Source: a virus
Taxonomy: Duplodnaviria > Caudoviricetes
DNA length: 52,268 nucleotides
IMG/VR virus record: IMGVR_UViG_3300043777_000338
Span: 1-52,268 of that record
Reading direction: 5' to 3' (one strand)
Within the stretch, counting starts at the first letter, position 1. The number at the start of each line of letters is the position of its first letter. The position numbers and the translations under genes are program-made. Below are positions 19,337 to 19,489 of this stretch, one piece after another. The notes below the pieces were generated by a model. That model worked only from the letters and a program-made list of their open reading frames with translations. It did no database searches and was not told where the DNA came from.

Positions 19337-19365
19337 TTGACTCTGATTTTTCCCTCATTTATCCT
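19337..19365 (+). promoter_or_regulatory. Sigma70-type promoter of candidate sRNA 2
   Basis: TTGACT-N17-TATCCT. Confidence 0.65.
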
Positions 19366-19371
19366 GACCTT

Positions 19372-19489
19372 GATCACTAAAGTCATTCATCACTTAGTGG
19401 TTTTCTTTGTTGTTGTTCCGAGGGACTCATCCTGAGTTCCTCGGTTTGCCACCGCGATTCGCCTCCCCTTGAATGCGGTGGCTTTTTTT
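19372..19489 (+). ncRNA. Candidate Hfq-dependent small RNA 2 (about 118 nt, three hairpins)
   Basis: Stem gatcactaa/ttagtggtt; GU-rich linker 19401-19417; 12-bp stem ccgagggactca/tgagttcctcgg; terminator gccaccgc...gcggtggc followed by T7 with a CCUCCCCUU loop. GC-rich island in AT-rich surroundings. Confidence 0.75.

Follow-up and report, generated by a model that had tools for sequence, protein, structure and literature searches.

The window, the whole stretch of DNA analysed (52,268 nt), is the complete genome of a 52-kb soil phage. A predicted RNA element with three hairpins (SL1–SL3) is located at positions 19372–19489, inside an island of raised G+C content (18860–19490) that is surrounded by flanks of 18–30% G+C. 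Two promoter candidates, P1 and P2, precede the element. A tandem array of 12-bp units lies between its terminator and the next open reading frame, which encodes a large toxin-like protein. The integrase gene and a gene for the RNA chaperone Hfq are adjacent to each other on the opposite strand. The coordinates of these features and of the proposed target sites are listed in Table 1.

Table 1. Features of the RNA element, its surroundings and its proposed targets. Energies are those of the duplex with the linker; p values are derived from 300 shuffles of each start region.
Feature	Position	Strand	Description
Hfq, 84 aa	4100–4354	−	Lies close behind the integrase gene; possible chaperone of the RNA
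Tyrosine integrase	4439–5623	−	Arm-binding N-terminus; Pfam Phage_integrase 1.3e-31, Arm-DNA-bind_3 3.6e-12
Proposed target 1, CA-rich element and AAGGA	5629–5642	−	−19 to −6 of the integrase ATG (5623); −15.7 kcal/mol; p 0.023
Candidate site GATAACAAAGGAAA	14999–15012	−	Upstream of a TTG-start 70-aa ORF (14780–14992); −15.6 kcal/mol; p 0.003
Candidate site GATAACAAAAAAGGAGA	16809–16825	−	Upstream of ATG 16802; −15.0 kcal/mol; p 0.013; carries the motif AACAA..GGA
Proposed target 2, identical to the 14-mer of target 1	17029–17042	−	−20 to −7 of ATG 17022 (51-aa ORF); −16.6 kcal/mol; p 0.06
P1, second promoter-like site	19190–19218	+	TTGACC-N17-TACACT; 9/12 consensus matches
Two strong hairpins between P1 and P2	19227–19261, 19275–19308	+	No T-run after them; z −4.4
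P2, sigma-70-like promoter candidate	19337–19365	+	TTGACT-N17-TATCCT; 9/12 consensus matches; predicted start ~19372
SL1, 5' hairpin	19372–19402	+	In MFE and centroid folds; starts at the predicted +1
G/U-rich unpaired linker, proposed seed	19403–19417	+	15 nt; single-stranded in MFE and centroid folds of the short isoform
SL2, 12-bp hairpin	19418–19444	+	Its G-U pairs are A-C mismatches on the minus strand
SL3, intrinsic terminator	19448–19489	+	Hairpin 19448–19482, 13-bp stem, C-rich loop CGCCUCCCCUUG, U7 at 19483–19489
12-bp tandem array CTTTTTTTATAT	19482–19577	+	8 copies; between the terminator and the next ORF
First downstream ORF, 1291 aa	19664–23539	+	Toxin-like; signal-peptide-like N-terminus; possible cis target

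Folding of the plus strand from 19368 to 19489 yields the three hairpins with a minimum free energy of −47.9 kcal/mol. Dinucleotide shuffles of this segment have a mean of −25.2 ± 3.2 kcal/mol (z −7.16) and none of 200 was equally stable. The three-hairpin fold is dominant, and an alternative antiterminator fold is not evident. The minus strand of the element folds less stably (−42.2 kcal/mol) and has no T-run after the stem. Thus, the plus strand is likely the RNA strand. A structured unit of about 118 nt with a promoter-like site and a terminator, as proposed in the original prediction, is present in the sequence. Its description as three hairpins and a terminator is right about the fold and the terminator but not about the count, as there are three hairpins in total and the third is the terminator itself. 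The terminator loop is the one given there. The 14-mer originally named as the linker (19401–19414) is mostly unpaired, but its first two bases (19401–19402) are inside the closing pairs of SL1.

The neighboring stretch 18845–19130 is also elevated in G+C and is no more structured than expected (z +0.27 and −0.23); the signal of the element is therefore local. Two other candidates, a minus-strand RNA at 18845–18975 and a structured RNA at 18860–19130, were discarded because of the same lack of excess structure.

The spacing of P2 places the predicted +1 at the first base of SL1. Promoter-like sites are common in this part of the genome (38 in 15000–21000 compared with 25.6 ± 5.8 in shuffles), and a consensus match alone is weak evidence. 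P2 is therefore regarded as a candidate promoter of the element. A leftward promoter candidate at 17675–17647 has a −10 hexamer identical to that of P2. Transcription from P1 would yield an isoform of about 265 nt with the same terminator end. The complete segment 19222–19489 folds with −91.1 kcal/mol (z −8.5 over 268 nt), and in this long-isoform fold the linker is paired with an A-rich stretch near 19320–19336. The terminator hairpin SL3 has a ΔG of −18.9 kcal/mol. Of the 11 candidate sites in the genome with a hairpin and a T-run, only three, this one included, have −18 kcal/mol or less, and its T-run is supplied by the first unit of the 12-bp array. Hence, two features expected of Hfq-type sRNAs are found. 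An intrinsic terminator with a 3' U-tail of about six or more residues is given by the 13-bp stem and U7. An accessible seed or U-rich stretch is offered by the linker in the short isoform, but is paired in the modelled P1 isoform.

The hfq gene beside the integrase encodes what is, judged by its sequence, a canonical Hfq. The profile scores are 98 bits for Pfam PF17209 (cutoff 27, E 2.4e-28), 111.1 for NCBIfam NF001602 (cutoff 95) and 100.9 for TIGR02383 (cutoff 61.7), so that the equivalog cutoffs are exceeded, and the protein has the YKHAI motif. The best solved relative is 6gwk_A (109 bits) and the Sm2 motif is intact (LVYKHAIST aligned). Hfq is rare in phage records. Any match was present in 7 of 50,697 phage records, four of which are records of 386–501 kb. 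The phrases "phage-encoded Hfq" and "viral Hfq" were not found in the papers listed by literature searches, which covered sources other than subscription journals, and PMC12152347 makes no mention of "Hfq homolog", "Hfq-like", "encode Hfq" or "phage Hfq". Control by an sRNA is more plausible because the phage encodes Hfq beside its integrase.

The phage had been described as lacking a recognisable cI/cro pair. No S24-peptidase CI was detected in the 30 ORFs scanned, in agreement with this description, but regulators of the HTH and MarR types are present. Since an operator-like repeat is located on the integrase promoter as well, a switch operated by proteins is possible. With regard to the host, the phage Hfq has a match in 351 of 401 alphaproteobacterial genomes. 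The identity among the matches listed is 59–72%, and no host lineage stands out for this reason. The named relatives include those from Caedimonadaceae and Alphaproteobacteria MAGs (~72–73%), and this likeness is only a hint as to the host. A further relative with 77% identity is encoded on a contig of 55,213 bases.

The sequence AACAACAAAGGAAA is present exactly at both proposed target sites, in front of the integrase gene and of the ORF starting at 17022. It departs from the linker antisense at a single position, which gives exactly the 14 contiguous pairs with one G-U pair that had been claimed. Both sites also cover the SD as claimed, since both include AAGGA. For the AACAACAAAGGAAA pattern 0.04 matches are expected, and 0 of 100 shuffled windows reached three matches. 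The site GATAACAAAGGAAA likewise forms 14 contiguous pairs with the linker, three of them G-U. Inspection of the integrase and 17022 leaders showed that they have 16 identical bases in common and a similar layout of promoter and palindrome. Consequently, the two proposed targets are not independent of each other.

For the integrase start region, pairing with the linker exceeds chance only weakly. In the original prediction, equally good hits of shuffled RNAs were named as an outcome that speaks against the proposal, and this outcome was largely observed. Among 1000 composition-matched shuffled seeds, whose energies were compared across start regions, 55%, 28% and 14% equalled the best, second and third energy, respectively. 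The accompanying caveat of a low-complexity seed was justified; the complementarity is A/U-rich and does not stand out by energy. Genome windows with an energy at or below that of the site number 67 of 8706 for the integrase site and 29 of 8706 for the 17022 site, and better-pairing sites exist within ORFs. Against start-region shuffles, 12 of 77 start regions have p values of 0.05 or less. Another locus, 11590–11603 on the minus strand, is complementary to the same two sites as the linker. Contiguous pairing of at least 14 nt with some start region is possible for about 35 genomic loci. By contiguity the linker is modestly unusual, since such a match is found in 6 of 179 14-mers with a similar composition (T≥9, T+G≥13).

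The linker has a modest bias towards leftward genes. Its mean energy is −11.8 kcal/mol with the 14 leftward start regions and −9.35 kcal/mol with the 63 others (Mann-Whitney p 0.017). An equal leftward bias was found for 3 of 400 shuffled seeds and for one of 74 natural T/G-rich 20-mers. The motif AACAA..GGA occurs in 4 of the 14 leftward start regions and in none of the 63 others. Both tests are post hoc, as they were defined after the top matches had been seen, and are based on rough gene calls. ARN-repeat motifs, which correspond to the distal face of Hfq, are not enriched in the leftward leaders (at least four repeats in 3/14 compared with 14/63).

Relatives of the element were searched for by several routes. 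At gathering thresholds, tRNA-Asn is the sole Rfam match in the whole window, and none of the families GcvB, AbcR/ar15, cuckoo, sX13 or others reaches its gathering score. At E≤10 there are eight matches in 18600–19700, none of which is GcvB, AbcR or cuckoo. The suggested relation to GcvB and the AbcR/cuckoo RNAs is therefore unsupported at the level of family membership. The best match is sX13 (RF02232) with 22.8 bits and an E-value of 0.069 over 19389–19487. This Xanthomonadaceae RNA, the only near-match family, has C-rich stem-loop loops and CCCC in its terminator loop. Its gathering score of 50 is far above the score of the element, the SL2 loop of the element is AUCCU and not C-rich, and the host group is a different one. 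The likeness is one of architecture, as far as the sequence tells, and not of membership.

A single-sequence covariance model was run against 47 sources (755,581 bases), namely the window and the longer 46 of 97 loci. It recovered the element itself, and the two further matches have E-values of 3.8 and 8.6. The exact SL2 and linker patterns have no match in the viral contigs, and blastn of 19100–19700 against the 50,697 phage records yielded none either. With TerL as query, 229 relatives were confirmed in viral contigs (80 kept, best identity 52%), while the genome contigs contributed 14 loci, none of them above 45% identity. With the large ORF as query, no relative was confirmed in the viral contigs.

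The best explanation for the region 19372–19489 is a stand-alone gene, carried by a temperate alphaproteobacterial phage, for an Hfq-type sRNA of about 118 nt. This reading is tentative, with a probability somewhat short of even, and its targets are putative. That a discrete RNA ends at 19489 is probable. Transcription would start from the sigma-70-type promoter P2 at the base of SL1. The transcript would comprise SL1, the G/U-rich linker, the second hairpin and the strong terminator with its U7 tail. Hfq-binding base-pairing sRNAs are built in this way, and Hfq would be supplied by the phage. Action in trans by base pairing would be the most likely mode, although for trans action as such the chances are slightly below balanced. 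The best seed candidate is the linker. Its putative targets are a CA-rich element abutting the SD of four leftward genes (the integrase gene and the ORFs with start codons at 17022, 16802 and 14992), where pairing would block ribosome binding. Specific repression of the integrase and 17022 start regions is nevertheless unlikely. Host mRNAs are equally possible targets.

Alternatively, P1 and P2 might drive the toxin-like cassette downstream, perhaps together with later genes. In this case, the 118 nt would be its promoter-proximal leader, and most transcripts would end at the strong terminator unless read-through is enabled by a phage or host factor, according to the logic of lambda PR'-6S RNA-tR'/Q or of another processive antitermination system. 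The short RNA would be a by-product that could bind Hfq, and lambda 6S is indeed listed as Hfq-bound in the pertinent part of PMC12197685. The element precedes the 1291-aa ORF by 175 nt and stands at the head of a long run of mostly plus-strand genes, and a simple scan, which covers consensus-type promoters acting without an activator, detected no plus-strand promoter-like site in 19365–20018. A promoter-proximal terminator that is followed by no further promoter before the downstream genes is what such a leader should have. However, a weak candidate TTGAAT-N17-TTTAAT was noticed by eye at ~19593–19621, behind the phased T-tract array. It lacks the A at position 2 of the −10 hexamer and could drive the ORF alone. 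The terminator is among the three strongest of the genome and is located in the middle of one gene direction instead of at the end of an operon. The conserved Cys-rich protein of 130 aa encoded ~1 kb upstream, in which CxC and CxxC are invariant in 3/3 sequences, might act as a regulator. Nevertheless, neither a Q-like protein nor another antiterminator was recognised, Pfam, PHROG and NCBIfam gave no match for the 130-aa protein, and no alternative antiterminator fold is apparent. The G+C content of both element and cassette exceeds that of the early region, as expected for joint arrival. On the other hand, genes on the minus strand (25162–25545, 25923–26300 and 28157–28606) break up the supposed late operon, and the large ORF is present in none of five TerL-related phages. 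The large ORF is thus a piece of cargo and does not lead a conserved late operon. On balance, a terminated leader is somewhat unlikely. It would make the element a control point of a toxin-like cargo cassette and would be of narrower interest.

In the simplest case, SL3 would just end rightward early transcription coming from ~17700–18640; the other hairpins and the promoter hexamers would have no function and the complementarity would be a low-complexity coincidence. The abundance of promoter-like sites in the 6 kb around the element, the A/U-rich complementarity that is equalled by shuffled seeds and by another locus, and the many loci with 14-nt matches to start regions agree with this explanation, as does the lack of an RNA homologue in Rfam and in the covariance-model search of the 47 sources. 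But the structure exceeds SL3. It comprises SL1, SL2 and the two upstream hairpins, and the flank is free of such a signal. Furthermore, the last early ORF stops at 18640, ~800 nt ahead of the terminator, SL1 starts exactly at the predicted +1, and the G+C island stands out from its AT-rich surroundings. A plain terminator is therefore quite unlikely, and the stand-alone sRNA is still the preferred reading.

The enterobacterial, Hfq-dependent sRNA GcvB targets C/A-rich elements at the SD of several mRNAs, or shortly before it, by means of a G/U-rich stretch. The element resembles GcvB (RF00022) in having an unpaired G/U-rich stretch between hairpins, an intrinsic terminator behind it and, as proposed here, C/A-rich targets close to the SD. 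It differs from GcvB in being phage-borne, in its alphaproteobacterial setting and in having no match to this family. In addition, the seed of the candidate is no better by energy than shuffled seeds and its targets are putative. In P4 (CI RNA) and P1/P7 (c4 RNA), a small RNA governs the lifestyle switch by pairing with leaders or ribosome-binding sequences of phage operons. These RNAs are processing products of the very operon under their control, and their repeated target sites lie nearby, whereas the candidate has its own promoter-like site, its proposed targets are 2–14 kb away and Rfam indicates no sequence relation. At lambda PR'-6S-tR', a short terminated RNA is the default and antitermination by Q allows read-through. 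What the candidate shares with this system is a promoter with a strong terminator close behind it, followed by a long block of rightward genes. The differences are that no Q-like gene was recognised, that the block opens with cargo absent from relatives and that minus-strand genes interrupt it.

Hfq-dependent phage sRNAs include VpdS, PreS and lambda 6S according to parts of PMC12197685. VpdS of VP882 and PreS of lambda are trans-acting sRNAs of temperate phages that act on phage and host mRNAs around lysis-lysogeny, as stated in sections of PMC12197685 and of bioRxiv 10.1101/2024.10.31.621285. It is a recent finding that phage sRNAs using host Hfq (VpdS and PreS, same parts of PMC12197685) direct the choice between lysis and lysogeny. 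Supplementary Table S1 of PMC12197685, as referred to in these parts, has 38 phage sRNAs without known function and may include related cases. PreS and VpdS rely on host Hfq, whereas the present phage has its own hfq gene; there is no sequence relation to them and the candidate is known from sequence alone.

A canonical Hfq and an Hfq-type sRNA in one temperate phage would constitute a self-contained viral riboregulation system. It would extend the phage sRNA/Hfq idea into the alphaproteobacteria, which are little studied for phage regulation. This claim is easily testable since the module consists of ~1.5 kb and the hfq gene. One step further, the phage might possess a private riboregulation module that comprises its own Hfq, encoded next to the integrase, and one or more dedicated sRNAs. 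The G/U-rich seed would recognise a CA-rich element fused to the SD of the integrase gene and of three genes in the leftward operon. A joint switch of integration and the leftward programme would thereby operate on RNA, and the P1 isoform with its masked seed would provide a second layer. Such an RNA-and-chaperone lifestyle switch would be carried by the virus and not borrowed from the host, but this extended model is very unlikely.

Some observations concern the surroundings of the element. The ORFs 17921–18313 and 18784–19053 have no Pfam or PHROG match, and 17921–18313 has no NCBIfam match either. For the 130-aa neighbor protein two relatives were found, one of them on a 1184-base contig that ends short of the RNA region and the other, with 68% identity, on a contig of 53,304 bases. 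Its alignment has no match in the 401 alphaproteobacterial genomes and, in the viral contigs, no more than a match of 27% identity. The structure model of this protein is unusable (pLDDT 45.8). The 1291-aa ORF has sub-threshold Pfam scores for DUF4258 (18.6 bits, cutoff 25) and DUF637 (16.2 bits, cutoff 26.6). A type III toxin-antitoxin system, composed of a repeat array and a toxin, was considered on inspection and rejected; the units are of low complexity, the array is located 3' of the terminator and not before it, and the ORF is without a matching family. In a comparison of contigs from four runs over 4300–23600, a second strain (X2) shows many differences, and the pieces listed leave out 19148–19463. 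In a second strain from another run, the 12-bp array differs in length.

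The feature at 19337–19489 is real, and very likely an RNA element on the plus strand. The promoter-like site, hairpins and terminator of the original prediction are found as described; there are three hairpins and the last of these is the terminator. Residues 19368–19489 (+) form the three hairpins with U7 after the last one and have a minimum free energy of -47.9 kcal/mol. None of 200 shuffles is equally stable (-25.2 ± 3.2 kcal/mol, z -7.16). The reverse strand lacks the T-run and its fold is weaker (-42.2 kcal/mol) because several G-U pairs become A-C. A home-made search of the whole genome for a hairpin followed by a T-run (≤ -9 kcal/mol) gave 11 terminator candidates, and only three, including the terminator of the element, reach ≤ -18 kcal/mol. 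The G+C content of the RNA island is 39–45%, compared with 18–30% on both sides. Upstream of the promoter-like site P2 there is a second one, P1, and 19222–19489 treated as one fold has a z of -8.5. In the modelled 268-nt isoform the G/U-rich linker between the first two hairpins is paired with an A-rich stretch near 19320–19336, which could mask the proposed seed.

The adjoining G+C-elevated segment 18845–19130 is not unusually structured in the folds tested on the two strands. In run X2, a metagenome run with a second strain of the phage, the mostly ORF-poor stretch 18586–19147 has 5 differences in 562 bases and a depth about twice that of its neighbours, which have 13 differences in 347 bases and 14 in 392. 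This segment may be more conserved or shared.

Features of the RNA element, its surroundings and the leftward genes
Feature	Position	Strand	Remarks
HSP20/IbpA-like small heat-shock protein	3594–3986	-	next gene after hfq; Pfam 33.5 bits; own TTGATC-N17-TATAAT
Hfq, 84 aa	4100–4354	-	start 84 nt downstream of integrase stop
Tyrosine integrase	4439–5623	-	
Operator-like repeat GTTAACAA-N5-6-TAACAA	5650–5671	-	integrase promoter region
Operator-like repeat	5880–5900	-	integrase promoter region
MarR-family regulator	15671–16138	-	in leftward operon; nearest NCBIfam model LdtR, 95 bits (cutoff 250)
Cys-rich protein, 130 aa	17921–18313	+	heads early-right genes, upstream of RNA element
Operator-like repeat	18819–18839	+	
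P1, promoter-like	19190–19218	+	two strong hairpins downstream (z -4.4), without own terminator
P2, promoter-like	19337–19365	+	TTGACT-N17-TATCCT; predicted +1 is first base of first hairpin
12-bp tandem array	19482–19577		CTTTTTTTATAT, 8 copies; phased T-tracts; between terminator and large ORF
Large ORF, 1291 aa	starts 19664	+	GGGAG upstream; signal-like N-terminus

The linker was proposed to pair over 14 nt, with one G-U, to the SD regions of the integrase and of the 51-aa leftward ORF starting at 17022, and this complementarity is exact. AACAACAAAGGAAA occurs exactly twice, at 5629–5642 (-) and 17029–17042 (-), and the linker antisense differs from it in one base, giving the G-U pair. Each site includes the AAGGA of its start region, and none of 100 shuffled windows has three matches. 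The sites have 16 identical bases in common. A near-perfect T/A palindrome (TTTTCTTTTT..AAAAAGAAAA; 5695–5718, 17121–17144 and 18841–18862) is located upstream of a TTGAC-type -35 at both leaders, with the third copy beside the third operator-like site. Since the 16-mer and the palindrome layout are common to both, the two sites represent one event, not two.

Judged by energy against shuffled controls, the pairing is not exceptional. The 20-nt linker core was scored for duplex energy against 77 start regions derived from our own rough gene calls; 17022 ranks second (-16.6 kcal/mol) and the integrase fifth (-15.7 kcal/mol). The observed best, second-best and third-best energies are reached by 55%, 28% and 14% of 1000 shuffled cores, respectively. 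When each start region is compared with 300 dinucleotide shuffles of itself, the integrase has a p of 0.023 and 17022 one of 0.06; by the same test 12 of the 77 regions have p ≤ 0.05 and one has p ≤ 0.01. Of the 8706 windows scored on the two strands, 29 equal or surpass the 17022 site and 67 the integrase site, and the best linker sites genome-wide (-20.9 and -20.4 kcal/mol) are inside ORFs. A start region is matched over 14 uninterrupted base pairs, no more than one of them G-U, in 74 14-mer pairs (~35 loci). The match rate is 6/179 (3.4%) for 14-mers of like composition, 50/3069 for other T-rich 14-mers and 14/101,262 for the remaining ones; 11590–11603 (-) is also complementary to the integrase and 17022 sites. 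The complementarity alone is mildly unusual, perhaps at the level of a few per cent if no correction is made for the free choice of what to look at in the original prediction.

Minus-strand genes account for seven of the twelve start regions with the best energies. The mean linker energy is -11.8 kcal/mol for the 14 leftward start regions (3–18 kb) and -9.35 kcal/mol for the other 63 (Mann-Whitney p 0.017). An equal bias is observed for 3 of 400 shuffled cores and for one of 74 natural T/G-rich 20-mers elsewhere in the genome. The latter, 11585–11604 (-), is antisense to ORF 11391–11822 and has the strongest leftward bias of the 74. Furthermore, a CA-rich element abutting the SD (AACAA..GGA) is present in 4/14 leftward start regions (the integrase and the ORFs starting at 17022, 16802 and 14992) and in 0/63 others. 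A translational enhancer or a site bound by a protein would explain this element equally well. These comparisons were framed post hoc on data already seen and use rough gene calls, and they are leads, not proof. Overall, it is rather doubtful that the integrase and 17022 are specific targets of the candidate sRNA.

By its sequence, the 84-aa ORF is a canonical Hfq. It scores 98 bits in Pfam, is above cutoff for two NCBIfam equivalog models and matches 6gwk_A with 109 bits, with the YKHAIST motif intact. Hfq is rare among phage records: tblastn matches are present in 7 of 50,697, four of which are 386–501 kb records under bacterial or 'phage' names. A viral-contig scan gave no relatives, and the nearest Hfq proteins in a large protein database are at most 80% identical. 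Among the papers listed by full-text searches of the openly accessible literature, none contains the phrase 'phage-encoded Hfq' or 'viral Hfq'. The 84-nt gap between integrase and hfq contains a 9-bp hairpin followed by AUUUAUUUU, plus TATAAT; co-transcription is therefore uncertain. The adjacent HSP20 gene looks like moron-type cargo.

An sRNA of the Hfq type would fit naturally into a phage that carries hfq, which raises the prior for a trans-acting RNA, and the element is tentatively read as a stand-alone, trans-acting sRNA of this kind. The P4 CI RNA and the P1 c4 RNA are precedents for an RNA-based phage switch. Excerpts of one report add Hfq-dependent phage sRNAs as a further precedent and name lambda 6S among Hfq-bound phage RNAs (PMC12197685). 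No Rfam family matches the candidate RNA at gathering level. At E ≤ 10 the best match is sX13, a three-hairpin sRNA with C-rich loops, with 22.8 bits and thus below the gathering score of 50; GcvB, AbcR and cuckoo, to which the RNA had been likened, give no match even at this level. On paper the RNA would work in a GcvB-type or sX13-type manner, and it is a member of neither family.

A simple scan found no plus-strand promoter-like site from P2 to 20018, and the element could therefore be a promoter-proximal leader that is mostly terminated, or an attenuator, of the downstream genes, similar to lambda PR'-6S-tR'; this is possible but less likely than the sRNA reading, and no antiterminator was recognised. 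The 130-aa Cys-rich protein matches no family in Pfam, PHROG or NCBIfam and its structure model is poor; a search of 5.8 billion protein clusters gave only two relatives, and CxC and CxxC are invariant in 3/3 sequences. The sRNA and leader readings are not mutually exclusive. It is improbable that the third hairpin is a plain terminator and the other features are incidental. Its T-run is the first unit of the 12-bp array; in the X2 strain this array has a different copy number and differs by indels. The 1291-aa ORF has only sub-threshold Pfam matches (DUF637 and DUF4258) and is present in none of five TerL-related phages. The small ORFs that follow it match DUF7710 (132.6 bits) and a YxiG-like family (32.4 bits), and 19664–25049 (+) looks like a polymorphic-toxin-type cargo cassette.

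The phage had been described as lacking a recognisable cI-peptidase/cro pair. No S24 peptidase is present among the 30 ORFs scanned, but an HTH_17 protein, a weak Cro/C1-type HTH protein and the MarR/LdtR-like protein of the leftward operon are, as are operator-like repeats; the absence of a protein switch is not established. The repeat has three copies (0 expected), one of which overlaps the -10/+1 area of the candidate promoter for the integrase. This arrangement suggests that a DNA-binding regulator is shared between the integrase region and the one at 18.8 kb.

The 52,268-base window is a complete virus record with direct terminal repeats and a G+C content of 29–44%, and its DNA is seen repeatedly in soil metagenome runs. 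Further gene products include a primase/DUF3987 protein, an AAA_24 ATPase and a YqaJ-type nuclease. The best named relatives of the large terminase are from Roseobacter and Paracoccus phages (35–44% identity), and the phage Hfq is closest to chain 6gwk_A and to Hfq of alphaproteobacterial MAGs. Because of these likenesses and that of the MarR protein to LdtR, the host is likely an alphaproteobacterium. The only tRNA gene, tRNA-Asn(GTT) at 27981–28090 (-), is located in the structural gene region, and one of the three strongest terminators lies directly before it on its strand.
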